Counted from the stretch's first letter, positions 22,093-47,354 are shown. The stretch: 64,000 nt of DNA from an uncultured Chlamydiae bacterium (GCA_963754655.1 CAVWGN010000001.1:2304001-2368000); one strand, 5' to 3'. Made by a program: numbers and translations. The notes: a model not told the origin generated them from the sequence alone.

Positions 22093-24009
22093 ATGAATAT
22101 TCCAACTTCAAGTCTTCCTTTATGCACAGGTGTTGGATACAAGCGAAACTCCACTTGTATTCAACCTTTCCAACCTCCTCGTAAACGAATCAAACAAGAG
22201 ATTAACCCTCAGACAATCTCCTCTGCTTTTCCATTTTGGCAAGAATTATCAAACTATAAGGATATTATTCTAAAAATTAGTTCTTATCTTAGAATTAAAG
22301 ATTTACTCCATTTAGAAGCTACTCATAAAGCACAAGGCAATTATACTAAGGACTTTTGGATTCAAAAGAAAAAGGATTCTGTCCCTAATTGGGCAATGTG
22401 TGAAAAAGAGCCTCATCAAGATAAATGGAACGTCTGTTTAACTTCAGCACTTAAACGCTGCGTCAAAGAATTAGCAGCAAATTCCATGGGAATTAATGTG
22501 CCATTAGCCCAAAACATCTTTCTTTACTCTCAAGGACTTTTCAAAAGATTTCCCTTGTATGGATGTTATGTTAAAAGCGAAATAACTAAATTAGCTAATA
22601 ACTCCCCTAATATCTTAAATGAATTACAATCACAAAAAGATGAAATTTATCAGTTAGCTTTACAAAAAAAGGGAGGAGAATTAATTCTTCAAACTCTTTT
22701 TGAAATACACAATTATCTTTCTCAACCCAATGCACGATCCTATTATTTAATTAGCCAATATGCAACGGAGGCAATTAATCAAAAAGCTTATTGCATTAGC
22801 CTATTTGCTTTAAAACTATTCTATCAAAAAAATTCACACGCAAATTTAAATAATGATCAACGAAATCTATTAGAAGATTTAAGTCTACAGGCTGCTAAAA
22901 AAGGATATTTTTTGGCGTTAGATCTTTTGCTCTCTCACTATTCTCCAGCAGATGTCCAAAAGTTAATTGATCAAGGCTTGTGTTATGCTCCAGTGCTAGC
23001 TCAGCAGGCTGTTCAGTTTTTCTCTACACAGCAATGGAGACAAGCTGACGCGCTTTTAGTGGAGGCCATTGCTAAATATGGAAATAAAGTTCCAGCTAAG
23101 GTTTTAAATAATGCAGCTTACATTAAAATGCGCTTGAAGCAATATTCTGAAGCAGATGCTCTCTATGCCCAAGCAATTGTCAAGTATGGGCCTCAAGTTT
23201 CAGCTTATATTCTAGACAATGCCGCTTTCGTTAAAAAAGAATTGAAGCAATATTCTGAAGCAGATGCTCTCTATGCCCAAGCTATTGCCAAGTATGGGCC
23301 TCAAGTTCCAGCTTATGTTCTAAAATATTCCGCTTTCGTTAAAAAAGAATTGAAGCAATATTTTGAAGCAGATGCACTTTATGCCCAAGCAATTGCCAAG
23401 TATGGGCCTCAAGTTCCAGCTGATGTTCTAACCGATTCCGCTTTCGTTAAAAAAGAATTGAAGCAATACCCTGAAGCAGATGCTCTCTATGCCCAAGCAA
23501 TTGCCAAGTATGGGCCTCAAGTTCCAGCTGATGTTCTAACCAATTCCGCTTTCATTAAAATACAATTGAAGCAATATTCTGAAGGAGATGCTCTCTATGC
23601 TCAAGCAATTGCCAAGTATGGGCCTCAAGTTCCAGCTTATATTCTAGCTAATTCCGCTTTCGTTAAAAAAGAATTGAAGCAATATTTTGAAGCAGATGCA
23701 CTTTATGCCCCAGCAATTGCCAAGTATGGGGACCAAGTTCCAGCTTATGTTCTAGTCAATTCCGCTTTCGTTAAAAAAGAATTGAAGCAATACCCTGAAG
23801 CAGATGCTCTCCATGCCCAAGCAATTGCCAAGTATGGGGACCAAGTTCCAGCTTCTGTTCTAGCCAATTCCGCTTTCGTTAAACAAGAATTGAAGCAATA
23901 CCCTGAAGCAGATGCACTTTATGCCCAAGCAATTGCCAAGTATGGGCATCAAGTTCCAGCTGATGTTTTAGAGGCTGCAGCTCAAGTTAAACTTCAATTA
24001 AAAGAATAA
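22093..24009 (+). CDS. Array paralog 1: NLS/F-box-like/36-aa TPR-like repeat protein, 8 repeats
   Basis: Repeats start at aa 335; 638 = 334 + 8x36 + 16. Confidence 0.9.
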   Translation: MNIPTSSLPLCTGVGYKRNSTCIQPFQPPRKRIKQEINPQTISSAFPFWQELSNYKDIILKISSYLRIKDLLHLEATHKAQGNYTKDFWIQKKKDSVPNWAMCEKEPHQDKWNVCLTSALKRCVKELAANSMGINVPLAQNIFLYSQGLFKRFPLYGCYVKSEITKLANNSPNILNELQSQKDEIYQLALQKKGGELILQTLFEIHNYLSQPNARSYYLISQYATEAINQKAYCISLFALKLFYQKNSHANLNNDQRNLLEDLSLQAAKKGYFLALDLLLSHYSPADVQKLIDQGLCYAPVLAQQAVQFFSTQQWRQADALLVEAIAKYGNKVPAKVLNNAAYIKMRLKQYSEADALYAQAIVKYGPQVSAYILDNAAFVKKELKQYSEADALYAQAIAKYGPQVPAYVLKYSAFVKKELKQYFEADALYAQAIAKYGPQVPADVLTDSAFVKKELKQYPEADALYAQAIAKYGPQVPADVLTNSAFIKIQLKQYSEGDALYAQAIAKYGPQVPAYILANSAFVKKELKQYFEADALYAPAIAKYGDQVPAYVLVNSAFVKKELKQYPEADALHAQAIAKYGDQVPASVLANSAFVKQELKQYPEADALYAQAIAKYGHQVPADVLEAAAQVKLQLKE

Positions 24010-24478
24010 CCCGCAGGAGATCATCTTGTAATATGACGGCTCTTTAGGCCTTAGGCCATACCATCAACAAGTTAAGAGAGGGGCTTAGACTACGCAGCGA
24101 CTGAAGCGTCGTGTAGCCTAAACTCATCTGTTAGCTTGATGCGTATGACCCTTTAGGGCTAACTACAAAATCCTCAGCTAATTCAAAAACTTATCTTCCC
24201 GGCCTAGAAATGTGAGTTAAATTCTTCTAGATCAAAATGTTTGGATTTATTATGCTATTTTTTATCTTTGATACTTTTGGCCTTTATTCTTATCTTTCTT
24301 AAAAAAGTTGGGAAAGATATGAAATTCAAAATGAAGTAGTTATTAAGAAATTTTAATCGAAAGCCTCCTGCCATCAAGCTTGGACTTAAATCAGTCTCAA
24401 TGAGCACATCCTTATGTCCACAAGTACTAAATATATTAATTAAAAATAAAAAAAATGATAATAATAAGGTAAATCATA

Positions 24479-26722: not shown

Positions 26723-27188
26723 CCCGCAGGAGATCATCTTGTAATATGACGGCCCTTTAGGCCTTAGGCCATACCATCAACAAGTTAAGAGAGGGGCTTA
26801 GACTACGCGGCGACTGAAGCGTTGTGTAGCCTAAACCCATCTGTTAGCTTAATGCTATGACCTTTAGGCCTAACTACAAATCCTCAGCTAATTCAAAAAC
26901 TTACCTTCCGGTCCTAGAAATGTGAGTTAAATTCTTCTAGATCAAAATGTTTGGATTTATTATGCTATTTTTTATCTTTGATACTTTTGGCCTTTATTCT
27001 TGTCTTTCTTACAAAAGTTGGGAAAGATATGAAATTCAAAATGAAGTAGTTATTAAGAAATTTTAATCAAAAGCCTCCTGCCATCAAGCCTGGACTTAAA
27101 TCAGTCTCAATGAGCACATACTTATATCACCAACTATTAAATGTATTAATTAAAAATAAAGAAAATGATAATAATAAGGTAAATCATA

Positions 27189-29753
27189 ATGAATATTCAA
27201 AGTTCAAGTCTTCCTTTATGCACAGGTGTTGGATACAAGCGAAACTCCACTTGTATTCAACCTTTCCAACCTCCTCGTAAACGAATCAAACAAGAGATTA
27301 ACCCTCAGACAATCTCCTCTACTTTTCCATTTTGGCAAGAATTATCAATCTATAAGGATATTATTCTAAAAATTAGTTCTTATCTTAGAATTAAAGATTT
27401 ACTCCATTTAGAAGCTACTCATAAAGCACAAGGCAATTATACTAAGGACTTTTGGATTCAAAAGAAAAAGGATTCTGTCCCTAATTGGGCAATGTGTGAA
27501 AAAGAGCCTCATCAAGATAAATGGAACGTCTGTTTAACTTCAGCACTTAAACGCTGCGTCAAAGAATTAGCAGCAAATTCCATGGGAATTAATGTGCCAT
27601 TAGCCCAAAACATCTTTCTTTACTCTCAAGGACTTTTCAAAAGATTTCCCTTGTATGGATGTTATGTTAAAAGCGAAATAACTAAATTAGCTAATAACTC
27701 CCCTAATATCTTAAATGAATTACAATCACAAAAAGATGAAATTTATCAGTTAGCTTTACAAAAAAAGGGAGGAGAATTAATTCTTCAAACTCTTTTTGAA
27801 ATACACAATTATCTCTCTCAACCCAATGCCCGATCCTATTATTTAATTAGCCAATATGCAACTGAGGCAATTAATCAAAAAGCTTATTGCATTAGCCTAT
27901 TTGCTTTAAAACTATTCTATCAAAAAACTTCACACGCAAATTTAAATAATGATCAACGAAATCTATTAGAAGATTTAAGTCTACAGGCTGCTAAAAAAGG
28001 ATATTTTTTGGCGTTAGATCTTTTGCTCTCTCACTATTCTCCAGCAGATGTCCAAAAGTTAATTGATCAAGGCTTATGTTATGCTCCAGTGCTAGCTCAG
28101 CAGGCTGTTCAGTTTTTCTCTACACAGCAATGGAGACAAGCTGACGCGCTTTTAGTGGAGGCCATTGCTAAATATGGGAATAAAGTTCCAGCTAAGGTTT
28201 TAAATAATGCAGCTTACATTAAAATGCGCTTGAAGCAATATTCTGAAGCAGATGCTCTCTATGCCCAAGCTATTGCCAAGTATGGGCCTCAAGTTTCAGC
28301 TTATATTCTAGACAATGCCGCTTTCGTTAAAAAAGAATTGAAGCAATATTCTGAAGCAGATGCTCTCTATGCCCAAGCAATTGCCAAGTATGGGCCTCAA
28401 GTTTCAGCTTATATTCTAAACAATGCAGCTTACATTAAAATGCAATTGAAGCAATATTCTGAAGCAGATGCTCTCTATGCCCAAGCAATTGTCAAGTATG
28501 GGCCTCAAGTTCCAGCTTATATTCTAGACAATGCCGCTTTCGTTAAAAAAGAATTGAAGCAATATTCTGAAGCAGATGCTCTCTATGCCCAAGCAATTGC
28601 CAAGTATGAGCCTCAAGTTTCAGATTATGTTCTAGCAAATTCCGCTTTCGTTAAAAAAGAATTGAAGCAATATTTTGAAGCAGATGCACTTTATGCCCGA
28701 GCTATTGCCCAGTATGGGCCTCAAGTTCCAGATTATGTTCTAGCACATTCCGCTTACATTAAAATGCAATTGAAGCAATATTCTGAAGCAGATGCTCTCT
28801 ATGCCCAAGCAATTGCCAAGTATGGGCCTCAAGTTCCAGATTATGTTCTAACAAATTCCGCTTACATTAAAATGCAATTGAAGCAATATTCTGAAGCAGA
28901 TGCTCTCTATGCCCAAGCTTTTGCCAAGTATGGGCCCCAAGTTCCAGCTTATATTCTAGCCAATTCCACTTTCGTTAAAAAAGAATTGAAGCAATACCCT
29001 GAAGCAGATGCACTTTATGCCCAAGCAATTGCCAAGTATGGGGACCAAGTTCCAGCTTCTGTTCTAAACAATGCCGCTTTCGTTAAAAAAGAATTGAAGC
29101 AATACCCTGAAGCAGATGCACTTTATGCCCAAGCAATTGCCAAGTATGGAGACCAAGTTCCAGTTTCTGTTCTAGTCCTGTCCGCTTTCGTGAAAAAAGA
29201 ATTGAAGCAATACCCTGAAGCAGATGCTCTCCATGCCCAAGCAATTGCCAAGTATGGAGACCAAATTCCAGCTTATGTTCTAACCGATTCCGCTTTCGTG
29301 AAAAAAGAATTGAAGCAATACCCTGAAGCAGATGCACTTTATGCCCAAGCAATTGCCAAGTATGGAGACCAAGTTCCAGCTTATATTCTAGTCAATTCCG
29401 CTTTCGTGAAAAAAGAATTGAACCAATACCCTGAAGCAGATGCTCTCCATGCTCAAGCAATTGCCAAGTATGGGGACCAAGTTCCAGCTTATGTTCTAAA
29501 CAATGCCGCTTTCGTTAAAAAAAAATTGAAGCAATATTTTGAAGCAGATGATCTCTATGCCCGAGCAATTGCCAAGGATGGAGACCAAATTCCAGCTTCT
29601 GTTCTAGCCAATTCCGCTTTCGTTAAAAAAGAATTGAAGCAATACCCTGAAGCGGATGCACTTTATGCCCAAGCAATTGCCAAGCTTGGACCGCAAGTTC
29701 CAGCTGATGTTTTAGAGGCTGCAGCTCAAGTTAAACTTCAATTAAAAGAATAA
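27189..29753 (+). CDS. Array paralog 3, 14 repeats
   Basis: Same architecture; N-terminal region nearly identical to paralog 1. Confidence 0.9.
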   Translation: MNIQSSSLPLCTGVGYKRNSTCIQPFQPPRKRIKQEINPQTISSTFPFWQELSIYKDIILKISSYLRIKDLLHLEATHKAQGNYTKDFWIQKKKDSVPNWAMCEKEPHQDKWNVCLTSALKRCVKELAANSMGINVPLAQNIFLYSQGLFKRFPLYGCYVKSEITKLANNSPNILNELQSQKDEIYQLALQKKGGELILQTLFEIHNYLSQPNARSYYLISQYATEAINQKAYCISLFALKLFYQKTSHANLNNDQRNLLEDLSLQAAKKGYFLALDLLLSHYSPADVQKLIDQGLCYAPVLAQQAVQFFSTQQWRQADALLVEAIAKYGNKVPAKVLNNAAYIKMRLKQYSEADALYAQAIAKYGPQVSAYILDNAAFVKKELKQYSEADALYAQAIAKYGPQVSAYILNNAAYIKMQLKQYSEADALYAQAIVKYGPQVPAYILDNAAFVKKELKQYSEADALYAQAIAKYEPQVSDYVLANSAFVKKELKQYFEADALYARAIAQYGPQVPDYVLAHSAYIKMQLKQYSEADALYAQAIAKYGPQVPDYVLTNSAYIKMQLKQYSEADALYAQAFAKYGPQVPAYILANSTFVKKELKQYPEADALYAQAIAKYGDQVPASVLNNAAFVKKELKQYPEADALYAQAIAKYGDQVPVSVLVLSAFVKKELKQYPEADALHAQAIAKYGDQIPAYVLTDSAFVKKELKQYPEADALYAQAIAKYGDQVPAYILVNSAFVKKELNQYPEADALHAQAIAKYGDQVPAYVLNNAAFVKKKLKQYFEADDLYARAIAKDGDQIPASVLANSAFVKKELKQYPEADALYAQAIAKLGPQVPADVLEAAAQVKLQLKE

Positions 29754-30252
29754 CCCGCAGGAGATGATCTTGTAATATGACGGCTCTTTAGGCCTTAGGC
29801 CATACCATCAACAAGCTAAGAGATGGGCTTAGACTACGCGGCGACTGAAGCGTCTTGTAGTCTAAACTCATCTGTTAGCTTGATGCGTATGAGACCCTTT
29901 AGGCCTAACTACAAAATCCTCAGCTAATTCAAAAACTTATCTTCCCGGCCTAGAAATGTGAGTTAAATTCTTCTGGATCAAAATGTTTGGATTTATTATG
30001 CTATTTTTTATCTTGGATACTTTTGGCCTTTATTCTTATCTTTCTTACAAAAGTTGGGAAAGATATGAAGTTCAAAATAAAGTAGTTATTAAGAAATTTT
30101 AATCAAAAATACCCCTGCCATCTTTCAAGCTTAGACTTAAATCAGTCTCAATGAGCACATACTTGTGTAAACAAGTATTGAATGTATAAATTAAAAACAA
30201 AGATAGTTATAATAACTAAAAGATATTTATAATAAATTAAAGGTAAATCATA

Positions 30253-32817
30253 ATGAATATTCAAAGTTCGAGTCTTCCTTTATATACAGGTATTGGATAC
30301 AAGCGAAACTCCACTTGTATTCAACCTTTCCAACCTCCTCGCAAACGAATCAAACAAGAGATTAACCCTCAGAACAGCTCCTCTACTTTTCCATTTTGGC
30401 AAGAATTATCAAACTATAAGGACATTATTCTAAAGATTGGTTCCTATCTTAGAATTAAAGACTTACTTCATCTAGAAGCTACTCATCAAGCACAAAGCAA
30501 TTATACTAAGGATTTTTGGACTCAAAAGAGAAAGGATTCTGTACCTAATTGGGCCATGTGTGAAAAAGAGCCCCATCAAGATAAATGGGACGTCTGTTTA
30601 AATTCAGCACTTAAACGCTCTGTCAAAGAATTAGCAGCAAATTCCGCAGGGATTAATGTGTCATTAGCTCAAAATATCTTTCTTTACTCTCAAGGACTTT
30701 TCAAAAGATTTCCCTTGTATGGATGTTATGTTAAAAGCGAAATAGCTAAATTAGCTAGTAGCTCCCCTAATATCTTAAATGAATTAAAATCACAAAAAGA
30801 TGAAATTTACCAGTTAGCTTTACAAAAAAAGGGAGGAGAATTAATTCTTCAAACTCTTTTTGAAATCCATAATTATCTTCTTCAATCCAATGCACGATCC
30901 TATCACTTAATTAGCCAATATGCAACCGAGGCAATTAATCAAAAAGCTTATTGCATTAGTCTATTTGCTTTAAAACTATTCTATCAAAAAATTGCACATG
31001 CAAATTTAAATAATGATCAACGAATTCTATTAGAAAATTTAAGTCTACAGGCTGCTAAAAAAGGATATTTTTTGGCGTTAGATCTTTTGCTCTCTCACTA
31101 TTCTCCGGCAGACGTCCAAAAGTTAATTGATCAAGGCTTGTGTTATGCTCCAGTGCTAGCCCAGCAGGCTGTTCAGTTTTTCTCTACACAGCAATGGGGA
31201 AAAGCGGACGCGCTTTTAGTGGAGGCCATCGCTAAATATGGGAATAAAGTTCCAGCTAAGGTTTTAGATAATGCAGCTTACATTAAAATGCGATTGAAGC
31301 AATATTCTGAAGCAGATGCTCTCTATGCCCAAGCAATTGTCAAGTATGGGCCTCAAGTTCCAGCTCTTGTTCTAGACAATGCCGCTTTCGTTAAAATAGA
31401 ATTGAAGCAATATTCTGAAGCAGATGCTCTCTATTACCAAGCTATTGCCAAGTATGAACCTCAAGTTCCAGCTCTTGTTCTAGATCAGGCAGCTTACATT
31501 AAAATGCAATTGAAGCAAGATTCTGAAGCAGATGCTCTCTATGCCCAAGCAATTGTCAAGTATGGGCCTCAAGTTCCAGCTTATGTTCTAAAATATTCCG
31601 CTTTCGTTAAAAAAAAATTGAAGCAATATTCTGAAGCAGATGCACTTTATACCCAAGCAATTGCCAAGTATGGGCCTCAAGTTCCAGCTTATATTCTAGA
31701 CAATGCCGCTTTCGTTAAAACAGAATTGAAGCAATATCCTGAAGCAGATGCTCTCTATGCCCAAGCTATTGCCAAGTATGAACCTCAAGTTCCAGCTAAT
31801 GTTCTAGCCAATTCCGCTTTCGTTAAAAAAGAATTGAAGCAATATCCTGAAGCAGATGATCTCTATGCCCGAGCAATTGCCAAGGATGAACCTCAAGTTC
31901 CAGCTAATGTTCTAGCCGATTCCGCTTTCGTTAAAAAAGAATTGAAGCAATATCCTGAAGCAGATGATCTCTATGCCCGAGCAATTGCCAAGGATGAACC
32001 TCAAGTTCCAGCTAATGTTCTAGCCGATTCCGCTTTCGTTAAAAAAGAATTGAAGCAATATCCTGAAGCAGATGATCTCTATGCCCGAGCAATTGCCAAG
32101 GATGAATCTCAAGTTCCAGCTGATGTTCTAGATCAGGCAGCTTACATTAAAATGCAATTGAAGCAATATTCTGAAGCAGATGCTCTCTATGCCCAAGCTA
32201 TTGCCAAGTATGGGGAACAAGTTCCAGCTTATATTCTAGCCAATTCCGCTTTCGTTAAAAAAGAATTTAAGCAATACCCTGAAGCAGATGCTCTCTATGC
32301 TCAAGCAATTGCCAAGTATGGGCCTCAAGTTCCAGCTTCTGTTCTAGTCCTGTCCGCTTCCGTTAAAAAAGAATTGAAGCAATACCCTGAAGCAGATGCT
32401 CTCTATGCCCAAGCTATTGCCAAGTATGGGGAACAAGTTCCAGCTTATATTCTAGCCCAGTCCGCTTTCGTTAAAAAAGAATTGAAGCAATACCCTGAAG
32501 CAGATGCTCTCTGTGCCCAAGCAATTGCCAAGTATGGGCCTCAAGTTCCAGCTTCTGTTCTAGTCCTGTCCGCTTCCGTTAAAAAAGAATTGAAGCAATA
32601 CCCTGAAGCAGATGCTCTCTGTGCCCAAGCAATTGCCAAGCTTGGACCGCAAGTTCCAGCTTATATTCTAGCCAATTCCGCTTTCGTTAAACAAGAATTG
32701 AAGCAATACCCTGAAGCAGATGCACTTTATGCCCAAGCAATCGCCAAGTATGGGGACCAAGTTCCAGCTTATGTTTTAGAGGCTGCAGCTCAAGTTAAAC
32801 TTCAATTAAAAGAATAA
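30253..32817 (+). CDS. Array paralog 4, 14 repeats
   Basis: Same architecture; exact 108-bp periodicity at 31811-32106. Confidence 0.9.
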   Translation: MNIQSSSLPLYTGIGYKRNSTCIQPFQPPRKRIKQEINPQNSSSTFPFWQELSNYKDIILKIGSYLRIKDLLHLEATHQAQSNYTKDFWTQKRKDSVPNWAMCEKEPHQDKWDVCLNSALKRSVKELAANSAGINVSLAQNIFLYSQGLFKRFPLYGCYVKSEIAKLASSSPNILNELKSQKDEIYQLALQKKGGELILQTLFEIHNYLLQSNARSYHLISQYATEAINQKAYCISLFALKLFYQKIAHANLNNDQRILLENLSLQAAKKGYFLALDLLLSHYSPADVQKLIDQGLCYAPVLAQQAVQFFSTQQWGKADALLVEAIAKYGNKVPAKVLDNAAYIKMRLKQYSEADALYAQAIVKYGPQVPALVLDNAAFVKIELKQYSEADALYYQAIAKYEPQVPALVLDQAAYIKMQLKQDSEADALYAQAIVKYGPQVPAYVLKYSAFVKKKLKQYSEADALYTQAIAKYGPQVPAYILDNAAFVKTELKQYPEADALYAQAIAKYEPQVPANVLANSAFVKKELKQYPEADDLYARAIAKDEPQVPANVLADSAFVKKELKQYPEADDLYARAIAKDEPQVPANVLADSAFVKKELKQYPEADDLYARAIAKDESQVPADVLDQAAYIKMQLKQYSEADALYAQAIAKYGEQVPAYILANSAFVKKEFKQYPEADALYAQAIAKYGPQVPASVLVLSASVKKELKQYPEADALYAQAIAKYGEQVPAYILAQSAFVKKELKQYPEADALCAQAIAKYGPQVPASVLVLSASVKKELKQYPEADALCAQAIAKLGPQVPAYILANSAFVKQELKQYPEADALYAQAIAKYGDQVPAYVLEAAAQVKLQLKE

Positions 32818-34383: not shown

Positions 34384-34850
34384 CCCGCAAGAGATCATCT
34401 TGTAATATGACGGCCCTTTAGGCCTAAGTACAGAGCTCTCAGCCAATTCAAAAAACTTATCTTTCTGGTCTAGTACTCAACCACATTAGTTTTGTGTATT
34501 TAGACTCTTTAAAGCCCCGGGGTGGGTTGTTCATTTTGTGCAAAAAATGAGCTTTATTTTTCACAATAATTGGCATAATTAAATTGAAGGTCGCATGTTT
34601 ATGCCGTCCTTTCAGGACTCGATGTCTTTTTGATAGAACCCAGGCCTCCGCTTCGCTGCGACCTGGGCTGTAACATGACGGCCCTTCAGGCCTTAACAAA
34701 AGAGATTTAAGTCCCTCTTCTATAGTCCATAAATAGTCCTTTTGTTAAGGCTTAAAGGGCCGGCCCTTCAGGCCTTAACAAGAGATGTTTAAGTCCCTCT
34801 TCTATAGTCCCTAAATCATCTTTTTGTTAAGGCCTGAAGGGCCGTCATGT

Positions 34851-36116: not shown

Positions 36117-36152
36117 CATGTTACAGCCCAGGTCGCAGCGAAGCGGAGGCCT

Positions 36153-38030
36153 GGGTTGGGATGAGAAAACAAAAAAATATTTAACAACTAATTATTAGAA
36201 CGCTTTTCCTCCTATTTTAAATTCGCTTGGCTTTTTAAAAAGAGGCTTTTATAATTGATTGCTCAAAATTAGATGAGGCATAAAATGGATTCAAAAAGCA
36301 CTCAAAAGCATGAGCGTCCTTCAGATATACGTAAACAAGTGAAGCATTACCAGGAAAGTCGTGATGAATGGAAGCAAAGAAACGCAGAAAAAAGAACTAA
36401 GATTCAAGCTCTAATGACTGATAAGAAACGATTAGGAGAAAGGCTACAAAAGGAACAAGATAATATCTTGGCATTAAACAAACAGATAAAATGCCTTCAG
36501 TCGAGATTAGAAGAGGTAGAAGAGAAAAGTAAAATCAAAGACAAGCAAATTGATGAATTAAAAAAAAAGCTTGTGCGATAATTGAGCAAGAAATTAGCAA
36601 CAATCGAAGGGTCGCTCGACATCAATATCCTATATTATTTATATTTTTGTGATTTCACTTGCATTAGCTGCAATAGCATTTAGAGCGATTCAGCGAATTT
36701 TCATCTTCATGCAGAGTTGTAACATTCCAATATTTAAATATTTCAATTTCCAGCCTTCATGGAAAAGCGTCGAATTGTGGTTTTTACGATATGGGCTTTA
36801 CAAGCTTATAAAGGCTAAGAAAAAGGCTTCAGATTGGATTATCCTTGTTGATTTTAAAGTTCAAGCTGGTTACCAAAAGTGCTTAATAGTTCTTGGAGTT
36901 CAATTAAGTACATTACAAAGTAAGTTTGAAAAAAGGGGCAGCTTTGATATTCATCATGAAGATTTCCAACCACTAGCGCTACAACCCATGAATTCATCAA
37001 CTGGTGAAAAAGTTGCGCATGTTTTAGAAGAAATATCGGAAAAAATTGGCCCATTTCTGCAGATAGTGGCAGATCATGGCAGTGATGTAAATAAAGGTGT
37101 AAGACTATATTGCCAAAACCATGAAAAAACAATAAACACCTATGATGTGGTCCATAAACTAGCAATTCTATTAAAAAAGGAACTGGAAAAAGATGATACT
37201 TGGAAACACATAATTCAATTGATTACAGATACAAAACAAAAGACAAAACAGAGTCCAGAGGCTTTTTTGAGCCCTCCCAAACAAAGAGAAAAAGCGCGAT
37301 TCATGAATGCTGATATTTTAATTGATTGGCTACAAGATATTTTAAACCTTCTTCAAATGCAAGAGACGATTCCCCATTTAGATATAAAGAGACGATTCCC
37401 CATTTAGATATAAATAGATTAAAAGATAAAGCTGGTTGGATAGTCGATTTCGAAGAAGTCATTGAAAATATGCTCAGATGACAGAAATCATTCGTTTGGC
37501 AAGGCATTTAGTAAGAACTGAAGGTCTTCATAGACGAAGCTATGCGACTTTTTTTCTTAAAGCAAGACTTCACTTTAGAAGTTTGAAACCAGAAGCACTA
37601 CATTTGGCAAAAGAGATTTTTTATTTTTTGAAACAGGAAGGTAGAGTGCTATCCAAGGGACAGGTGTTAGTGGGAAGCAGCGAAGGAATAGAGTCTTTGA
37701 TAGGAAGACAGAAAATAATAGTAGAGAGAACCAAAGCAACATCTAGTATAACTAAAAGTATCCTAAGTCTTGCAGGAATGGTTGGGAAAAATAATTGTGA
37801 TATCTTACAAGAGGCTTTAGAAACGGTGTCAGTCGAAATGTTGGAGGAATGGGAAGAAACATGGATTGGCAAAACGGATTTAGCAAAACGAAAAGAAGTT
37901 TTGAGTTTGGGCAAAGTAAATTCAGATGTCATTGAACTTACTATAAAATCAAATAAATTGGAGCCAGAACCGTTAGCGATTTTAGCTATGTAAAAATCGG
38001 TTTTTAGCCCTCGTTTTCTCATCCCAGCCC
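36153..38030 (+). mobile_element. Decayed IS-like element, ~1.88 kb, family uncertain
   Basis: 18-bp terminal IR gggttgggatgagaaaac / gttttctcatcccagccc enclosing a coiled-coil ORF and transposase-like fragments. Confidence 0.75.
36273..37993 (+). pseudogene. Fragmented putative DDE transposase (coiled-coil ORF A plus pieces 36649-37407 and 37478-37993)
   Basis: Acidic motifs ILVD, VADHGSD, YDVVH, SSEGIES; frame breaks near 36648, at a 26-bp tandem duplication (37361-37412) and near 37468. Confidence 0.7.
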
Positions 38031-38445
38031 CGGGGCTAGGGTGTTAATTTTGTGCAAAAAAATGAGCTTTATTTTTCACAATAATTGGCATAGTTAAATT
38101 GAAGGTCGCATGTTTATGCCGTCCTTTCAGGACTCGATGTCTTTTTGATAGAACCCAGGCCTCCGCTTCGCTGCGACCTGGGCTGTAACATGACGGCCCT
38201 TCAGGCCTTAACAAAAAGATGATTTAGAGACTATAGAAGAGAGACTTAAACATCTCTTGTTAAGGCCTGAAGGGCCGTCATGTTACAGCCCAGGTCGCAG
38301 CGAAGCGGAGGCCTGGGTTCTATCAAAAAGACATCGAGTCCTGAAAGGACGGCATAAACATGCGACCTTCAATTTAACTATGCCAATTATTGTGAAAAAT
38401 AAAGCTCATTTTTTTGCACAAAATGAACACCCTAGCCCCGGGGCT
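38026..38445. repeat. ~420-bp palindrome with ~190-bp near-perfect arms containing REP-like stems
   Basis: agccccggggctagggtgtt...ggccttaacaa / ttgttaaggcc...caccctagccccggggct; the arm is also present at ~34513-34699. Confidence 0.9.
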
Positions 38446-38786
38446 TTGAAGCAATCTAAATACACAAAACTAGTGTGGTTGAGTACTAGGAATGTGATTT
38501 AAATTATTCTAGATCAAAATGTTTGGATTTGTTATGCTATTTTTTATCTTTGATACTTTTGAGCTTTATTCTTATCTTTCTTGCAAAAACTGGGAAAGAT
38601 ACGAAATCTAAAATAAAATGATTATTAAGAAAGTTTAATCAAAAGACATCTGTCATCTTTCAAGCTTGGACTCAAACCAGTTTCAATGAACATATACTCC
38701 TGTAAACAAGTATTGAATTTATAAATTAAAAGCAAAGATAATTACAATAACTAAAATATAGTTATAATAATTAAAGGTAAATCATA

Positions 38787-41243
38787 ATGAATATTCAAAG
38801 TTCAAGTCGTCCTTTATGTACAGGTGTTGGATACAAGCGAAACTCCACTTGTATTCAACCTTTCCAATCTCCTCGCAAACGAATCAAACAAGAGATTAAC
38901 CCTCGGACAATTTCCTCTACTTTTCCATTTTGGCAAGAATTATCAAACTATAAGGATATTATTCTAAAAATTAGTTCTTATCTTAGAATTAAAGATTTAC
39001 TCCATTTAGAAGCTACTCATAAAGTACAAGGCAATTATACTAAGGACTTTTGGATTCAAAAGAAAAAGGATTCTGTCCCTAATTGGGCAATGTGTGAAAA
39101 AGAGCCTCATCAAGATAAATGGAACGTCTGTTTAACTTCAGCACTTAAACGCTGCGTCAAAGAATTAGCAGCAAATTCCGTAGAGATTAATGTGTCATTA
39201 GCTCAAAATATCTTTCTTTACTCTCAAGGACTTTTCAAAAGATTCCCATTGTATGGATGTTATGTTGAAAGCGAAATAGCTAAATTAGCTAATAGCTCTC
39301 CTAATACCTTAAACAAATTACAATCACAAAAAGATGAAATTTACCAGTTAGCTTTACAAAAAAAGGGAGGAGAATTAATTCTTCAAACTCTTTTTGAAAT
39401 CCATAATTATCTTCTTCAATCCAATGCACGATCCTATCACTTAATTAGCCAATATGCAACCGAGGCAATTAATCAAAAAGCTTATTGCATTAGTCTATTT
39501 GCTTTAAAACTATTCTATCAAAAAATTGCACATGCAAATTTAAATAATGATCAACGAATTCTATTAGAAAATTTAAGTCTACAGGCTGCTAAAAAAGGAT
39601 ATTTTTTGGCGTTAGATCTTTTGCTCTCTCACTATTCTCCGGCAGACGTCCAAAAGTTAATTGATCAAGGCTTGTGTTATGCTCCAGTGCTAGCCCAGCA
39701 GGCTGTTCAGTTTTTCTCTACACAGCAATGGGGAAAAGCGGACGCGCTTTTAGTGGAGGCCATCGCTAAATATGGGAATAAAGTTCCAGCTAAGGTTTTA
39801 GATAATGCAGCTTACATTAAAATGCGATTGAAGCAATATTCTGAAGCAGATGCTCTCTATGCCCAAGCAATTGTCAAGTATGGGCCTCAAGTTCCAGCTC
39901 TTGTTCTAGACAATGCCGCTTTCGTTAAAATAGAATTGAAGCAATATTCTGAAGCAGATGCTCTCTGTGCCCAAGCAATTGTCAAGTATGGGCCTCAAGT
40001 TCCAGCTTATATTCTAAACAATGCCGCTTTCGTTAAAACAGAATTGAATCAATATTTTGAAGCAGATGCTCTCTATGCCCAAGCTATTGCCAAGTATGGG
40101 CCTCAAGTTCCAGCTTATATTCTAAACAATGCAGCTTTCGTTAAAAAAGAATTGAAGCAATATCCTGAAGCAGATGATCTCTATGCCCAAGCAATTGTCA
40201 AGTATGGGCCTCAAGTTCCAGCTAATGTTCTAGCCAATTCCGCTTTCGTTAAAAAAGAATTGAAGCAATATCCTGAAGCAGATGATCTCTATGCCCGAGC
40301 AATTGCCAAGGATGAATCTCAAGTTCCAGCTGATGTTCTAGATCAGGCAGCTTACATTAAAATGCAATTGAAGCAATATTCTGAAGCAGATGCTCTCTAT
40401 GCCCAAGCAATTGTCAAGTATGGGCCTCAAGTTCCAGTTTATATTCTAAACAATGCCGCTTTCGTTAAAAAACAATTTAAGCAATATTCTGAAGCAGATG
40501 CTCTCTATGCCCAAGCAATTGTCAAGTATGGGCCTCAAGTTCCAGCTTATATTCTAAACAATGCAGCTTTCGTTAAAATAGAATTGAAGCAATATTCTGA
40601 AGGAGATGCTCTCTGTGCCCAAGCAATTGCCAAGTATGGGCCTCAAGTTCCAGCTTCTGTTCTAGTCAAGTCCGCTTTCGTTAAAAAAGAATTGAAGCAA
40701 TACCCTGAAGCGGATGCTCTCTGTGCCCAAGCAATTGCCAAGCTTGGACCGCAAGTTCCAGCTAATGTTCTAGACAATGCCGCTGAAGTTAAAATAGGAT
40801 TGAAGCAATATTTTGAAGCAGATGCTCTCTGTGCCCAAGCAATTGCCAAGTATGGGCCTCAAATTCCAGCTTCTATTCTAGTCAAGTCCGCTTTCGTTAA
40901 AAAAGAATTGAAGCAATATTTTGAAGCAGATGCTCTCTATGCCCAAGCAATTGCCAAGTATGGGCCTCAAGTTCCAGCTTCTGTTCTAGTCCTGTCCGCT
41001 TTCGTTAAAAAAGAATTGAAGCAATATCCTGAAGCAGATGCTCTCTGTGCCCAAGCAATTGCCAAGTATGGGGACCGAGTTCCAGCTAATGTTCTAGCTA
41101 ATGCCGCTATAGTTAAAACAGAATTGAAGCAATACCCTGAAGCAGATGCACTTTATGCCCAAGCAATCGCCAAGTATGGGCATCAAGTTCCAGCTGATGT
41201 TTTAGAGGCTTCAGCTCAAGTTAAACTTCAATTAAAAGAATAA
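38787..41243 (+). CDS. Array paralog 6, 13 repeats
   Basis: 818 = 334 + 13x36 + 16. Confidence 0.9.
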   Translation: MNIQSSSRPLCTGVGYKRNSTCIQPFQSPRKRIKQEINPRTISSTFPFWQELSNYKDIILKISSYLRIKDLLHLEATHKVQGNYTKDFWIQKKKDSVPNWAMCEKEPHQDKWNVCLTSALKRCVKELAANSVEINVSLAQNIFLYSQGLFKRFPLYGCYVESEIAKLANSSPNTLNKLQSQKDEIYQLALQKKGGELILQTLFEIHNYLLQSNARSYHLISQYATEAINQKAYCISLFALKLFYQKIAHANLNNDQRILLENLSLQAAKKGYFLALDLLLSHYSPADVQKLIDQGLCYAPVLAQQAVQFFSTQQWGKADALLVEAIAKYGNKVPAKVLDNAAYIKMRLKQYSEADALYAQAIVKYGPQVPALVLDNAAFVKIELKQYSEADALCAQAIVKYGPQVPAYILNNAAFVKTELNQYFEADALYAQAIAKYGPQVPAYILNNAAFVKKELKQYPEADDLYAQAIVKYGPQVPANVLANSAFVKKELKQYPEADDLYARAIAKDESQVPADVLDQAAYIKMQLKQYSEADALYAQAIVKYGPQVPVYILNNAAFVKKQFKQYSEADALYAQAIVKYGPQVPAYILNNAAFVKIELKQYSEGDALCAQAIAKYGPQVPASVLVKSAFVKKELKQYPEADALCAQAIAKLGPQVPANVLDNAAEVKIGLKQYFEADALCAQAIAKYGPQIPASILVKSAFVKKELKQYFEADALYAQAIAKYGPQVPASVLVLSAFVKKELKQYPEADALCAQAIAKYGDRVPANVLANAAIVKTELKQYPEADALYAQAIAKYGHQVPADVLEASAQVKLQLKE

Positions 41244-41544: not shown

Positions 41545-43461
41545 ATGAATATTGAAAGTTCGAGTCTTTCTTTATGTACAGGTGTGGGACACAAGCGAAA
41601 CTCCACTTGTATTCAACCCTTCCAACCTCCTCGTAAACGAATCAAACAAGAGATTAACCCTCAGACAATCTCCTCTACTTTTCCATTTTGGCAAGAATTA
41701 TCAAATTATCAGGATATTATTTTAAAAATTGGTTCTTATCTTAGAATTAAAGATTTACTCCATCTAGAAGCCACTCATCAAGCACAAAGCAATTACAATA
41801 AGGACTTTTGGACTCAAAAGAGAAAGGCTTCTGTATCTAATTGGGCCATGTGTGAAAAAGAGCCCCATCAAGATAAATGGGACGTCTGTTTAAATTCAGC
41901 ACTTAAACGCACTGTCAAAGAATTAGCAGCAAATTCCTTGCAGACTAATGTGCCTTTAGCTCAAAACATCTTTCTTTACTCTCAAGGACTTTTCAAAAGA
42001 TTTCCTTTATATGGATGTTATGTTGAAAGCGAAATAGCTAAATTAACTAATAGCTCCCCTAACATCTTAAACAGATTACAAACACAAAAAGATGAGATTT
42101 ACTATTTAGCTTTACAAAAAAAAGGAGGAGAATTAATTCTTCAAACTCTTTTTGAAATACACAATTATCTTCTTCAACCCAATGCACGATCCTATCACTT
42201 AATTAGCCAATATGCAACCGAGGCAATTAATCAAAAAGCTTATTGCATTAGTCTATTTGCTTTAAAACTATTCTATCAAAAAATTGCACATGCAAATTTA
42301 AATAATGATCAACGAAATCTATTAGAAGATTTAAGTCTACAGGCTGCTAAAAAAGGATATTTTTTGGCGTTAGATCTTTTGCTCTCTCACTATTCTCCGG
42401 CAGACGTCCAAAAGTTAATTGATCAAGGCTTGTGTTATGCTCCAGTGCTAGCCCACCAGGCTGTTCAGTTTTTCTCTACACAGCAATGGGGAAAAGCGGA
42501 CGCGCTTTTAGTGGAGGCCATCGCTAAATATGGGAATAAAGTTCCAGCTAATGTTTTAGATAATGCAGCTTACATTAAAACGCACTTGAAGCAATATTCT
42601 GAAGCAGATGCACTTTATGCCCAAGCAATTGTCAAGTATGGGCCTCAAGTTCCAGCTTATATTCTAGACAATGCCGCTTTCGTTAAAATAGAATTGAAGC
42701 AATATTCTGAAGCAGATGCTCTCTATTCCCAAGCTATTGCCAAGTATGAACCTCAAGTTCCAGCTCTTGTTCTAGATCCGGCAGCTTACATTAAAATGCA
42801 ATTGAAGCAATATTCTGAAGCAGATGCTCTCTATGCCCAAGCAATTGTCAAGTATGGGCCTCAAGTTCCAGCTTATGTTCTAAAATATTCCGCTTTCGTT
42901 AAAAAAAAATTGAAGCAATATTTTGAAGCAGATGCACTTTATGCCCAAGCAATTGCCAAGTATGAACCTCAAGTTCCAGCTGAGGTTTTAGATAATGCAG
43001 CTTACATTAAAATGCAATTGAAGCAATATTCTCAAGCAGATGCTCTCTATGCCCAAGCAATTGTCAAGTGTGGGCCTCAAGTTCCAGCTTATATTCTAGG
43101 CAATGCTGCTTTCGTTAAAAAAGAATTGAAGCAATATTCTGAAGCAGATGCTCTCTATGCCCAAACTATTGCCAAGCTTGAACCGCAAGTTCCAGCTAAT
43201 GTTCTAGCCAATTCTGCTTTCGTTAAAAAAGAATTGAAGCAATACCCTGAAGCAGATGATCTCTATGCCCGAGCAATTGCCAAGGATGGAGACCAAATTA
43301 CAGCTTATGCTCTAGCCGATTCCGCTTTCGTTAAAAAAGAATTGAAGCAATACCCTGAAGCGGATGCACTTTATGCTCAAGCAATTGCCAAGCTTGGACC
43401 GCAAGTTCCAGCTGATGTTTTAGAGGCTGCAGCTCAAGTTAAACTTCAATTAAAAGAATAA
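41545..43461 (+). CDS. Array paralog 7, 8 repeats
   Basis: Same architecture. Confidence 0.9.
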   Translation: MNIESSSLSLCTGVGHKRNSTCIQPFQPPRKRIKQEINPQTISSTFPFWQELSNYQDIILKIGSYLRIKDLLHLEATHQAQSNYNKDFWTQKRKASVSNWAMCEKEPHQDKWDVCLNSALKRTVKELAANSLQTNVPLAQNIFLYSQGLFKRFPLYGCYVESEIAKLTNSSPNILNRLQTQKDEIYYLALQKKGGELILQTLFEIHNYLLQPNARSYHLISQYATEAINQKAYCISLFALKLFYQKIAHANLNNDQRNLLEDLSLQAAKKGYFLALDLLLSHYSPADVQKLIDQGLCYAPVLAHQAVQFFSTQQWGKADALLVEAIAKYGNKVPANVLDNAAYIKTHLKQYSEADALYAQAIVKYGPQVPAYILDNAAFVKIELKQYSEADALYSQAIAKYEPQVPALVLDPAAYIKMQLKQYSEADALYAQAIVKYGPQVPAYVLKYSAFVKKKLKQYFEADALYAQAIAKYEPQVPAEVLDNAAYIKMQLKQYSQADALYAQAIVKCGPQVPAYILGNAAFVKKELKQYSEADALYAQTIAKLEPQVPANVLANSAFVKKELKQYPEADDLYARAIAKDGDQITAYALADSAFVKKELKQYPEADALYAQAIAKLGPQVPADVLEAAAQVKLQLKE

Positions 43462-43997: not shown

Positions 43998-45698
43998 ATG
44001 AATATTCAAAGTTCGAGTCTTTCCTTATGTACAGGTGTGGGACACAAGCGAAACTCCACTTGTATTCAACCCTTCCAACCTCCTCGTAAACGAATCAAAC
44101 AAGAGATTAAGCCTCAGACAATCTCCTCTACTTTTCCATTTTGGCAAGAATTATCAAATTATCGGGATATTATTTTAAAAATTGGTTCTTATCTTAGAAT
44201 TAAAGATTTACTCCATCTAGAAGCCACTCATCAAGCACAAAGCAATTATACTAAGGACTTTTGGATTCAAAAGAAAAAGAATTCTGTACCCAATTGGGCC
44301 ATGTGTGAAAAAGAGCCTCATCAAGATAAATGGGACGTCTGTTTAAATTCAGCACTTAAACGCTCTGTCAAAGAATTAGCAGCAAATTCCGCAGGGGTTA
44401 ATGTGTCATTAGCTCAAAATATCTTTCTTTACTCTCAAGGACTTTTCAAAAGATTTCCCTTGTATGGATGTTATGTTAAAAGCGAAATAGCTAAATTAGC
44501 TAGTAGCTCCCCTAATATCTTAAATGAATTAAAATCACAAAAAGATGAAATTTACCAGTTAGCTTTACAAAAAAAGGGAGGAGAATTAATTCTTCAAACT
44601 CTTTTTGAAATCCACAATTATCTTTCTCAACCCAATGCACGATCTTATTATTTAATTAGCCAATATGCAACTGAGGCAATTAATCAAAAAGCTTATTGCA
44701 TTAGTCTATTTGCTTTAAAACTATTCTATCAAAAAATTGCACACGCAAATTTAAATAATGATCAACGAAATCTATTAGAAGATTTAAGTCTACAGGCTGC
44801 TAAAAAAGGATATTTTTTGGCGTTAGATCTTTTGCTCTCTCACTATTCTCCGGCAGACGTCCAAAAGTTAATTGATCAAGGCTTGTGTTATGCTCCAGTG
44901 CTAGCCAAGCAGGCTGTTCAGTTTTTCTCTACACAGCAATGGGGACAAGCTGACGCGCTTTTAGTGGAGGCCATCGCTAAATATGGGAATAAAGTTCCAG
45001 CTGAGGTTTTAGATAATGCAGCTTACATTAAAACGCACTTGAAGCAATATTCTGAAGCAGATGCTCTCTATGCCCAAGCAATTGTCAAGTATGGGCCTCA
45101 AGTTCCAGCTCTTGTTCTAGGCAATGCCGCTTTCGTTAAAATAGAATTGAAGCAATACCCTGAAGTAGATGCTCTCTGTGCCCAAGCAATTGCCAAGTAT
45201 GGGCCTCAAGTTCCAGCTTATATTCTAGACAATGCCGCTTTCGTTAAAAAAGAATTGAAGCAATATTTTGAAGCAGATGCTCTCTATGCCCAAGCTATTG
45301 CCAAGTATGAACCTCAAGTTCCAGCTAATGTTCTAGCCAATTCCGCTTTCGTTAAAAAAGAATTGAAGCAATACCCTGAAGCAGATGCTCTCTGTGCCCA
45401 AGCAATTGCCAAGTATGGGGAACAAGTTCCAGCTTCTGTTCTATGCAATTCCGCTTTCGTTAAAAAAGAATTGAAGCAATACTCTGAAGCAGATGCTCTC
45501 TGTGCCCAAGCAATTGCCAAGTATGGGGAACAAGTTCCAGCTTACGTTCTAACCCATTATGCTTTCGTTAAAAAAGAATTGAAGCAATACCCTGAAGCAG
45601 ATGCACTTTATGCCCAAGCAATCGCCAAGTATGGGCATCAAGTTCCAGCTGATGTTTTAGAGGCTTCAGCTCAAGTTAAACTTCAATTAAAAGAATAA
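43998..45698 (+). CDS. Array paralog 8, 6 repeats
   Basis: 566 = 334 + 6x36 + 16. Confidence 0.9.
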   Translation: MNIQSSSLSLCTGVGHKRNSTCIQPFQPPRKRIKQEIKPQTISSTFPFWQELSNYRDIILKIGSYLRIKDLLHLEATHQAQSNYTKDFWIQKKKNSVPNWAMCEKEPHQDKWDVCLNSALKRSVKELAANSAGVNVSLAQNIFLYSQGLFKRFPLYGCYVKSEIAKLASSSPNILNELKSQKDEIYQLALQKKGGELILQTLFEIHNYLSQPNARSYYLISQYATEAINQKAYCISLFALKLFYQKIAHANLNNDQRNLLEDLSLQAAKKGYFLALDLLLSHYSPADVQKLIDQGLCYAPVLAKQAVQFFSTQQWGQADALLVEAIAKYGNKVPAEVLDNAAYIKTHLKQYSEADALYAQAIVKYGPQVPALVLGNAAFVKIELKQYPEVDALCAQAIAKYGPQVPAYILDNAAFVKKELKQYFEADALYAQAIAKYEPQVPANVLANSAFVKKELKQYPEADALCAQAIAKYGEQVPASVLCNSAFVKKELKQYSEADALCAQAIAKYGEQVPAYVLTHYAFVKKELKQYPEADALYAQAIAKYGHQVPADVLEASAQVKLQLKE

Positions 45699-45977
45699 CC
45701 CACAGAAGATCATCTTGTAATATGACAACCCTTTAGGCCTTAGGCCATACCATTAACAAGCTAAGAGATGGGCTTAGACTACGCGGCGACTGAAGCGTCG
45801 TGTAGCCTAAACTGAAATTCAAAATGAAGTAGTTATTAAGAAATTTTAATCAAAAGCCCCTGGCATCTTTCAAGTTGGGACTTAAACCAGTCTCAATAAG
45901 CACGTACTCGTGTAAACAAGTATTGAATATATTAATTAAAAACAAAGATAGTTATAATAAATTAAAGGTAAATCATA

Positions 45978-47354
45978 ATGAATATTGAAAGTTCGAGTCT
46001 TTCCTTATGTACAGGTGTGGGACACAAGCGAAACTCCACTTGTATTCAACCCTTCCAACCTCCTCGTAAACGAATCAAACAAGAGATTAAGCCTCAGACA
46101 ATCTCCTCTACTTTTCCATTTTGGCAAGAATTATCAAATTATCGGGATATTATTTTAAAAATTGGTTCTTATCTTAGAATTAAAGATTTACTCCATCTAG
46201 AAGCCACTCATCAAGTACAAAGCAATTATACTAAGGACTTTTGGATTCAAAAGAAAAAGAATTCTGTACCCAATTGGGCCATGTGTGAAAAAGAGCCCCA
46301 TCAAGATAAATGGGACGTCTGTTTAAATTCAGCACTTAAACGCTCTGTCAAAGAATTAGCAGCAAATTCATTGCAGACTAATGTGCCCTTAGCTCAAAAT
46401 ATCTTTCTTTACTCTCAAGGACTTTTCAAAAGATTTCCTTTGTATGGATGTTATGTTGAAAGCGAAATAGCTAAATTAGCTAGTAGCTCCCCTAATATCT
46501 TAAATGAATTACAATCACAAAAAAATGAGATTTACCATTTAGCTTTACAAAAAAAAGGAGGAGAATTAATTCTTCAAACTCTTTTTGAAATACACAATTA
46601 TCTTTCTCAACCCAATGCACGATCTTATTATTTAATTAGCCAATACGCCACTGAGGCAATTAATCAAAAAGCTTATTGCATTAGCCTATTTGCTTTAAAA
46701 CTATTCTATCAAAAAGCTTCACACGCAGATTTAAATACTGAGCAACAAAATCTATTAGAGGATTTGAGTCTACAGGCTGCTAAAAAAGGATATTTTTTGG
46801 CTTTAGATCTTTTGCTCTCTCACTATTCTCCAGCAGACGTCCAAAAGTTAATTGATCAAGGCTTGTGTTATGCTCCAGTGCTAGCCAAGCATGCTCTTTC
46901 ATTTTTCTCTACACAGCAATGGGGAAAAGCGGACGCGCTTTTAGTGGAGGCCATCGCTAAATATGGGAATAAAGTTCCAGCTCGTGTTCTAGACACTGCC
47001 GCTCACATTAAAATAGAATTGAAGCAATATTCTGAAGCAGATGCTCTCTATGCTAAAGCAATTGCCGAGTATGGGGACCTAGTTCCAGCTACGACTCTAG
47101 AAAATTACACTTTCGTTAAAGGAGAATTGAAGCAATACCCTGAAGCAGATGCTCTCTGTACCCAAGCAATTGCCCAGTATGGGGACCACGTTACAACTAG
47201 TGCTTTAAACAATGCTGCTTTCGTTAAAAAAGAATTGAAGCAATATTGTGAAGCAGATGCTCTCTATACCCAAGCAATTGCCAAGTATGGGAACCGAGTT
47301 CCAGCTGATGTTTTAGAGGCTGCAGCTCAAGTTAAACTTCAATTAAAAGAATAA
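45978..47354 (+). CDS. Array paralog 9, 3 (more divergent) repeats
   Basis: 458 = 334 + 3x36 + 16; abuts folP. Confidence 0.88.
   Translation: MNIESSSLSLCTGVGHKRNSTCIQPFQPPRKRIKQEIKPQTISSTFPFWQELSNYRDIILKIGSYLRIKDLLHLEATHQVQSNYTKDFWIQKKKNSVPNWAMCEKEPHQDKWDVCLNSALKRSVKELAANSLQTNVPLAQNIFLYSQGLFKRFPLYGCYVESEIAKLASSSPNILNELQSQKNEIYHLALQKKGGELILQTLFEIHNYLSQPNARSYYLISQYATEAINQKAYCISLFALKLFYQKASHADLNTEQQNLLEDLSLQAAKKGYFLALDLLLSHYSPADVQKLIDQGLCYAPVLAKHALSFFSTQQWGKADALLVEAIAKYGNKVPARVLDTAAHIKIELKQYSEADALYAKAIAEYGDLVPATTLENYTFVKGELKQYPEADALCTQAIAQYGDHVTTSALNNAAFVKKELKQYCEADALYTQAIAKYGNRVPADVLEAAAQVKLQLKE

Follow-up and report, generated by a model that had tools for sequence, protein, structure and literature searches.

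The stretch of DNA analyzed here, hereafter the window, comprises 64,000 nucleotides from an uncultured Chlamydiae bacterium (GCA_963754655.1 CAVWGN010000001.1:2304001-2368000) and contains, between positions 22093 and 47354, an array of nine intact, paralogous open reading frames (ORFs) on the plus strand. Each encodes an N-region of 334 amino acids (aa; 335 aa in gene 2, with proteins cut at the first full unit), followed by 36-aa units in numbers of 8, 11, 14, 14, 2, 13, 8, 6 and 3 in genes 1 to 9, 79 in total, and by a 16-aa terminal half-unit that closes every array (ADVLEAAAQVKLQLKE or near variants). The original prediction for this locus had described the same nine intact paralogs, ~334-aa N-region, unit counts and half-repeat, with which our ORFs and unit cutting agreed exactly, and a 108-bp period was found in all nine genes by Tandem Repeats Finder. 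N-region copies in the genome number exactly nine, all in this array, which is flanked by cydAB on one side and by folP on the other. The best explanation for the family is that it consists of lineage-specific F-box/tetratricopeptide repeat (TPR) proteins of an amoeba-associated chlamydia. The features of the locus, including those of paralog 1 in full and a motif resembling a nuclear localization signal (NLS), are as follows.

21925..22092, plus strand: conserved upstream region of paralog 1, ~170 nt, ending in AAGGTAAATCATAATG; an equivalent precedes each of the nine genes
22093..24009, plus strand: paralog 1, 638 aa, with an N-region of 334 aa, 8 TPR units and a capping half-unit; Pfam TPR_12 at E 1e-11 and TPR_10 at E 2.9e-10, above cut-off
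22141..22194, plus strand: bipartite NLS-like motif of paralog 1, residues 17-34; counterpart in all nine genes
22231..22377, plus strand: predicted divergent F-box of paralog 1, residues ~47-95, a three-helix segment; counterpart in all nine genes
22378..23094, plus strand: conserved helical linker and degenerate TPR-like solenoid of paralog 1, residues 96-334, with a degenerate 'unit 0' at 299-334; ratio of nonsynonymous to synonymous differences per site (pN/pS) 0.24-0.43
23095..23958, plus strand: variable TPR array of paralog 1, 8 units of 108 bp
23959..24009, plus strand: terminal half-unit and stop codon of paralog 1; 16 aa, helix A only, probable TPR capping helix
24479..26722, plus strand: paralog 2, 747 aa, 11 units
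27189..29753, plus strand: paralog 3, 854 aa, 14 units
30253..32817, plus strand: paralog 4, 854 aa, 14 units, with recent internal one-unit and two-unit duplications
33115..34383, plus strand: paralog 5, 422 aa, 2 units
34384..38786, no strand assigned: intergenic insertion of nested mobile elements; Pfam rve, HTH and LZ_Tnp_IS481; 91-100% identical copies at other genome sites
38787..41243, plus strand: paralog 6, 818 aa, 13 units
41545..43461, plus strand: paralog 7, 638 aa, 8 units
43998..45698, plus strand: paralog 8, 566 aa, 6 units; used for the structure prediction
45978..47354, plus strand: paralog 9, 458 aa, with 3 units that diverge most

The 4.4 kb of mobile DNA that separates genes 5 and 6 has broken none of the paralogs. 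Upstream of all nine start codons, ~170-200 nt are conserved, with a mean column identity of 79% and AAGGTAAATCATAATG at the end, and every copy has kept this region along with a ribosome-binding site of its own. Given that these regions are conserved in all nine genes, the duplicated unit appears to have been a gene with its own leader. A scan of positions 21800-34500 revealed no excess of promoter-like sites (36, with 36.9 expected) or of terminator-like sites (11, with 10.5 expected).

The Pfam matches of the 36-aa units were to TPR families. Paralog 3 scored 75.3 bits against TPR_12 (cut-off 30.1; E 4e-21) and 75.1 bits against TPR_10 (cut-off 27.5; E 3e-21), and paralog 1 was also above the Pfam TPR cut-off, with the short paralogs 5 and 9 below it. 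The AlphaFold2 model of paralog 8 had a mean predicted local distance difference test (pLDDT) score of 76.7, with values of ~80-98 over residues 190-566. In this model, unit positions 1-13 form helix A and positions 17-34 form helix B, and the units stack as helix-turn-helix elements in a right-handed superhelix like that of solved TPR domains; the best structural matches listed were peptide-binding TPR proteins and consensus TPRs. As predicted by the model, the units make a continuous TPR superhelix. The unit length of 36 aa, not the TPR standard of 34, reflects two extra residues, which fall in the terminal part of helix B and the loop, and is a length variant of the kind seen in other TPR-like classes. 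The last helix of the model spans residues 551-563 and the alignment to a consensus TPR reaches the final residue, indicating that the terminal half-repeat is probably an ordinary TPR capping helix. In direct sequence comparison with the Protein Data Bank (PDB), a phmmer search with the paralog 8 array returned nothing at E ≤ 0.001, and a three-unit profile gave weak TPR matches (best E 0.02). Two related repeat classes were considered and set aside: no SEL1 family occurred among the Pfam matches, and HAT_PRP39_C appeared at E 0.007 for one relative, G180, alone. The repeats had already been described as TPR-like and not homologous to transcription activator-like effectors (TALEs), a description that the above-threshold TPR matches bear out, as does the lack of any TAL_effector or pentatricopeptide repeat (PPR) family at E ≤ 1 in the Pfam scan of the paralogs. 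Likewise, no PPR proteins were among the structural matches shown, in lists that are not exhaustive, and the PPR unit has 35 aa versus 36 here.

Across the 79 units, entropy peaked at positions 5 (2.59 bits), 2 (2.45), 12 (1.99), 6 (1.74), 18 (1.58), 33 (1.55), 13 (1.51) and 9 (1.30). The 79-repeat entropy check thus departs from the original prediction of a hypervariable di-residue at positions 5-6, and the scaffold, which had been called nearly invariant, proved less uniform, with at least 95% conservation at 15 of the 36 unit positions, a mean pairwise unit identity of 74% for protein (85% for DNA) and 78 distinct units among the 79. The string of gene 1 at positions 5-6, NN-DN-KY-TD-TN-AN-VN-AN, was confirmed. 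All 17 residue pairs listed earlier for positions 5-6 and all eight residues listed for position 2 were recovered, but the lists were incomplete, lacking DP and DT in the first case and R and T in the second, which brings the distinct variants to 19 and 10, respectively.

Rather than being evenly spread, variation clustered far beyond chance at six positions. Positions 2, 5, 6, 9, 12 and 13 account for 42% of the total entropy, a sum reached by only 9 of 1,947,792 six-position subsets, and this set ranks first of the 1716 six-position subsets within helix A. A helical wheel places the six positions between 120 and 240 degrees and the conserved packing residues 4, 7, 8, 11 and 14 on the opposite side. 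By sequence register, the variation is thus focused on that side of helix A which faces the lumen in canonical TPRs, in line with the earlier claim that the variable residues form one recognition surface with an ordered set of its own in each paralog. Four relatives of the paralogs, all from one metagenome and sharing ~46% identity and a matching architecture, also vary by eye mainly at these six unit positions. The most variable positions of TPRs in general have been described as 2, 5, 9, 12, 13, 33 and 34, all on the concave face, and the peptide contacts of HOP as positions 2, 5, 6, 9, 12 and 13 (Magliery and Regan, PMC1261162). Position 6 is Asn in 55 of the 79 units and coincides with the asparagine site of canonical TPRs; in OGT, the lumen carries two ladders, one of asparagines that grips unstructured peptides by their backbone and one of aspartates that selects for side chains (PMC11145291). 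Net charge was between -4 and +4 for the arrays and between -6 and +1 for the contact positions, which are rich in aromatic and polar residues, a predicted surface unlike a stripe for nucleic-acid binding.

The nearest unit by DNA sits in a different gene for 64 of the 79 units, from which we infer that the arrays were largely inherited via gene duplication. Judging from the unit sequences, they were then altered by unit gain and loss, of which the fresh duplications in gene 4 are an example. We counted changes along a FastTree phylogeny of the 79 units with Fitch codon states, for a site set fixed beforehand from the literature. At the contact sites {2, 5, 6, 9, 12, 13}, nonsynonymous (N) and synonymous (S) counts were 131.3 and 11.7, giving a ratio of nonsynonymous to synonymous rates (dN/dS) of 2.02 (binomial p 0.0115), compared to 0.79 at the remaining 30 positions. 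Pairwise counts over the 79 units, for a set chosen by its high entropy {2, 5, 6, 12, 13, 18, 33}, gave pN 0.372, pS 0.287 and pN/pS 1.30, with pN 0.083, pS 0.147 and pN/pS 0.56 outside that set. The N-region had a dN/dS of 0.30, with pN/pS of 0.25 for the F-box segment and 0.24 for the conserved solenoid, values that indicate purifying selection.

Based on profile comparisons, residues ~47-95 of the N-region are a divergent F-box. A profile of this segment, built from 35 sequences (3 from the window) over window residues 50-102 and searched against 177,635 PDB sequences, matched FBXL5 (E 3.7e-6), FBXW11 (4.5e-6), beta-TrCP1 (4.8e-6) and FBXW7 (3.4e-5). All 14 rows at E ≤ 0.0015, which also included FBXO4, FBXO31, FBXW8 and FBXL2, were named F-box proteins, the match lying in the F-box stretch at their N-terminus, with SKP2 next. 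From 150 listed homologs, we scanned 40, picked for a match starting in the N-region; nine of these had, at the corresponding place in the alignment, a match to Pfam F-box or F-box-like with E ≤ 0.01, one of them above the cut-off, and the G143 relative matched Pfam F-box at E 8e-4. A structural model of residues 40-200 (pLDDT 88) opens with helices at 47-64, 68-77 and 81-93, and the first match in the ESM Atlas was an F-box cluster (score 0.92). Similarity of the segment to solved F-box structures was weak. Regarding the N-region as a whole, four N-regions scanned alone matched no Pfam family at all, including DUF294 and OTU. The sole match of an N-region profile against the PDB, an interleukin at E 0.09, was taken as chance, and a scan of the genome contigs with such a profile yielded 60 pattern matches, none of which was confirmed.

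Elsewhere in the genome, the F-box segment profile matched two ORFs of 735-737 aa, ~3.5 kb apart (G000:C1:1006876-1006989, E 1.6e-7, and 1010445-1010558, E 5.9e-8), and, more weakly, four other sites. Given these matches, the genome has further candidate F-box proteins outside the window.

A basic motif precedes the F-box. Classical bipartite NLSs consist of two basic residues, a spacer of 10-12 residues and a basic cluster, and residues 17-34 of all nine paralogs read KR, 11 residues, RKRIK. Within the first 60 aa, the strict bipartite pattern occurs in 9 of the 1701 genome ORFs of at least 200 aa, which are exactly the nine paralogs (26 ORFs with a loose version), and K17 and R18 are invariant in all 15 aligned family members. 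Residues 1-47 are predicted to be disordered (pLDDT below 50 in the paralog 8 model), and acidic residues are absent from the first 35 in seven of the nine copies. These features make nuclear import of the paralogs plausible. Together, the NLS-like motif and the F-box would fit the original prediction of host-delivered, possibly nuclear effectors of the F-box/repeat kind known from environmental chlamydiae.

The N-region family had no match in the three same-genus genomes searched, and a search of 201 genomes of the order recovered only two distant relatives. A profile search of 1.8 billion representatives, with a profile that included some repeat columns, placed 86 proteins in the wider family at E ≤ 1e-30 and 427 at E ≤ 1e-10; one homolog is annotated from Candidatus Protochlamydia phocaeensis. 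In the G180 genome, an ORF of 36-aa TPR-like units (L002 1-483) precedes the distant relative (1252-3270), which suggests that the wider family is arranged in tandem in another genus too. A sequencing-run search returned no RNA run among those listed, and one soil-metagenome DNA run contained a fraction of 0.40 of the sequence words; its contigs on positions 21900-24500 were pieces of 122-485 nt with 0-17 differences, possibly originating from paralogs or from a relative.

Our favored interpretation, which we hold with moderate confidence, is that the nine genes encode secreted and possibly nuclear proteins that serve the host Skp1-cullin-F-box (SCF) ubiquitin ligase as substrate adaptors, capture host peptides inside the TPR lumen and have diversified in their contact residues. 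The proteins would be secreted into the host cell, probably via type III secretion, and the F-box would dock on host Skp1, allowing each protein to substitute as a substrate receptor of the SCF ligase, with the bipartite basic motif bringing at least part of the protein pool to the nucleus. The TPR lumen would bind extended stretches of host proteins, with the position-6 Asn holding the peptide backbone and positions 2, 5, 9, 12 and 13 reading side chains. Duplication, unit gain and loss, and diversifying selection at the contact positions would then have generated nine receptors with different host targets. Such families have been described in Parachlamydiaceae, where F-box+TPR proteins form tandem arrays with 1-39 repeats and tested representatives of the four largest families carry working type III secretion signals (Domman 2014, PMC4209131).

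Several observations weigh against this interpretation. The principal doubt concerns the F-box. An L-P pair, part of the LPxE motif, opens helix 1 of F-boxes and is important for Skp1 binding. Many homologs keep this pair, and the four metagenome relatives read L-T or L-I; the window proteins read L-S (ELSNYKDIIL) in its place, a change by which Skp1 binding could be weakened or lost. In addition, no Pfam F-box match was found in the window proteins, scanned as N-regions alone for four of the nine (E ≤ 10) and as four full-length proteins (E ≤ 1). Regarding the repeats, variation at positions 18, 22, 26, 29, 31 and 33 falls outside the helix-A face, and assignment of the variable face to the lumen is based on register and published TPR geometry, not on measured burial. 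Finally, the contact sites do show a signal of diversifying selection, but a modest one (p ~0.01), and it comes from a tree of short 108-nt units with few synonymous sites, among which recombination is likely.

If the F-box were a degenerate relic, the proteins could be host-directed TPR binders that make no use of SCF and that sequester, scaffold or mislocalize host (perhaps nuclear) proteins via the lumen. The change from L-P to L-S in all nine paralogs, and to L-T or L-I in the four metagenome relatives, would be expected of a relic, as would the failure of any scanned window protein to reach the Pfam F-box score and the weak likeness to solved F-boxes. However, a relic is expected to drift, and the segment has a pN/pS of 0.25, among the lowest in the protein, and remains part of a profile by which F-boxes are detected at E 4e-6; we regard this alternative as unlikely. 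A reading in which the diversity is mostly non-adaptive, the product of birth-and-death, unit gain and loss, a small symbiont population and relaxed exposed residues in redundant and maybe unsecreted copies, seems quite improbable to us. It draws on the restriction of the family, absent from the same-genus genomes searched, on the dN/dS of 0.79 at non-contact repeat sites, and on Domman 2014, who argued that drift contributes to F-box/repeat expansions and whose passages on these families give gene-level dN/dS values of 0.29-0.63 and no positive selection at the whole-gene level (PMC4209131). Yet the nine genes are all intact, with conserved upstream regions and N-regions at a dN/dS of 0.30, and relaxed constraint gives a dN/dS of at most 1, versus ~2 at the contact sites, and would not single out the canonical ligand positions.

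The remaining rival is a TALE/PPR-like nucleic-acid reader, in which each 36-aa unit would recognize one DNA or RNA base via positions 2, 5 and 6, so that the protein would target specific sequences in the host nucleus. Ordered, gene-specific residue strings in near-identical helical repeats, the NLS-like motif and the terminal half-unit all resemble such systems. In PPR proteins, too, the code residues line the inner side of a hairpin that is TPR-like, and pairs such as TD, TN, NN and DN resemble PPR code pairs. On the other hand, neither PPR nor TAL_effector families were detected at E ≤ 1 in the paralog scan, and the best structural matches listed were peptide-binding and consensus TPRs. 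Moreover, the arrays are near neutral and have no basic stripe, Asn at position 6 occupies a canonical TPR position and is not a code residue, variation extends over at least eight positions, and the F-box points toward protein substrates. The analogy to TALEs and the one-repeat-per-base code of the original prediction did not hold up, given that the variable residues lie on helix A at TPR peptide contacts. Because of the lack of homology, the helix-face variation, the neutral-to-acidic surface and the peptide-binding fold partners, a TALE/PPR-like code is unsupported, and we consider this alternative highly improbable.

The units may carry a per-repeat code for peptide residues. In its strongest form, which is more speculative and which we judge rather improbable, the arrays would be a natural modular peptide reader with Asn6 on the backbone of an extended host peptide and approximately two side chains read per unit by positions 2, 5, 9, 12 and 13, such that the unit string spells a linear host motif of 5-30 residues and the gain, loss and exchange of units between the nine genes re-program the (nuclear) SCF targets. 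If true, nature would here have produced a counterpart of the TALE code that targets proteins, comparable to the repeat-protein binders obtained by design. No gene families of environmental chlamydiae are larger than the F-box/repeat expansions, and the passages of Domman 2014 that describe them name no targets (PMC4209131). The array in the window is unusually clean, with nine recent copies of one scaffold that differ mainly at predicted ligand-contact residues and in unit number. Given that the copies differ mainly at few residues, differences in host targets could be mapped directly to those residues, and the recognition target and modularity of such effectors become experimentally tractable. 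For binder engineering, the array provides a naturally occurring TPR scaffold of 36-aa units in which the positions that tolerate change are known; on present evidence, it does not provide a new nucleic-acid code.

Three types of mobile or repetitive element were distinguished in the insertion between paralogs 5 and 6.

34928-36061: transposase ORF of an IS481-type insertion sequence, with 2-3 genome copies
~36147-38034: ~1.9-kb multicopy element, with at least 10 copies elsewhere in the genome at 98% identity
~38026-38489: ~0.45-kb palindromic element, present at dozens of genome sites in both orientations

The ORFs of the ~1.9-kb element (36649-37407 and 37478-37993) had no Pfam match. An 82-bp tandem repeat with GGCCCTTCAGGCC-like ends lies at 34679-34844 (2.0 copies, 89% matches), and a short motif similar to these ends, cggcccttcaggcct, occurs at 21404-21418. 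A near-perfect long palindrome with arms of ~130 nt was noted by eye at 21500-21800, ~300 nt upstream of paralog 1, and resembles palindromic mobile repeats of this genome. Near the array, the window also encodes further proteins of eukaryote-like or repeat type, namely an ankyrin-repeat protein (13163-14569; Ank_2, E 8e-6), a GYF_2-domain protein (4261-4788) and a DUF4116 protein (16047-16568). Further downstream, a 999-aa ORF (53670-56669) had no Pfam match at E ≤ 1e-5 and is flanked by three more match-less ORFs (52960-53586, 56816-57325 and 57339-57833). A 1918-aa ORF (57902-63658) contains two UvrA domain sets, with UvrA_inter twice and several ABC/AAA stretches; it is about twice as long as a typical UvrA and appears to be a UvrA that was duplicated or fused.

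Compared to known systems, the window proteins most resemble NEX2 and other Parachlamydiaceae F-box/TPR expansions, which likewise have an N-terminal F-box and C-terminal TPRs of varying number, occur in tandem arrays formed by duplication, are restricted to amoeba-associated chlamydiae and have whole-gene dN/dS values of ~0.3 (PMC4209131). Unlike NEX2, which mostly carries a DUF294 nucleotidyltransferase mid-domain according to the domain description in that paper, by which we set the two apart, the window N-region has no DUF294 or OTU Pfam match. In contrast to NEX2-type families more generally, the window F-box is too divergent for Pfam, and the 36-aa units are very alike, vary at ligand-contact positions and have a dN/dS above 1 there. 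Thus, the type of F-box/TPR family is already known, and what is new here is the lineage restriction, the contact-site diversification, the lack of a DUF294 mid-domain, the NLS-like motif and the very similar 36-aa units. Legionella AnkB and plant-pathogen F-box effectors, as cited in the same work (PMC4209131), follow a similar logic in which the F-box serves host Skp1 and the repeats pick substrates, but the repeats in the window are TPR and not ankyrin as in AnkB, and the nine paralogs lie in one array. The superhelical, peptide-binding TPR domains of OGT, LGN, HOP and consensus CTPR proteins differ in that their unit is 34 aa, the window unit being 36 aa with a longer helix B and loop, and the window TPR domain is fused to an F-box and has weak sequence similarity to solved TPRs (best E 0.02). 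TAL effectors share with the window proteins similar tandem units of ~35 aa, gene-specific residue strings, a terminal partial unit and nuclear targeting signals. However, there is no homology between them, and the variable residues of the window units, which are 74% identical on average and lack a basic DNA-binding stripe, are distributed across the helix-A face and not confined to two loop residues. The NLS-like motif, moreover, is N-terminal in the window proteins, in which no activation domain was seen.

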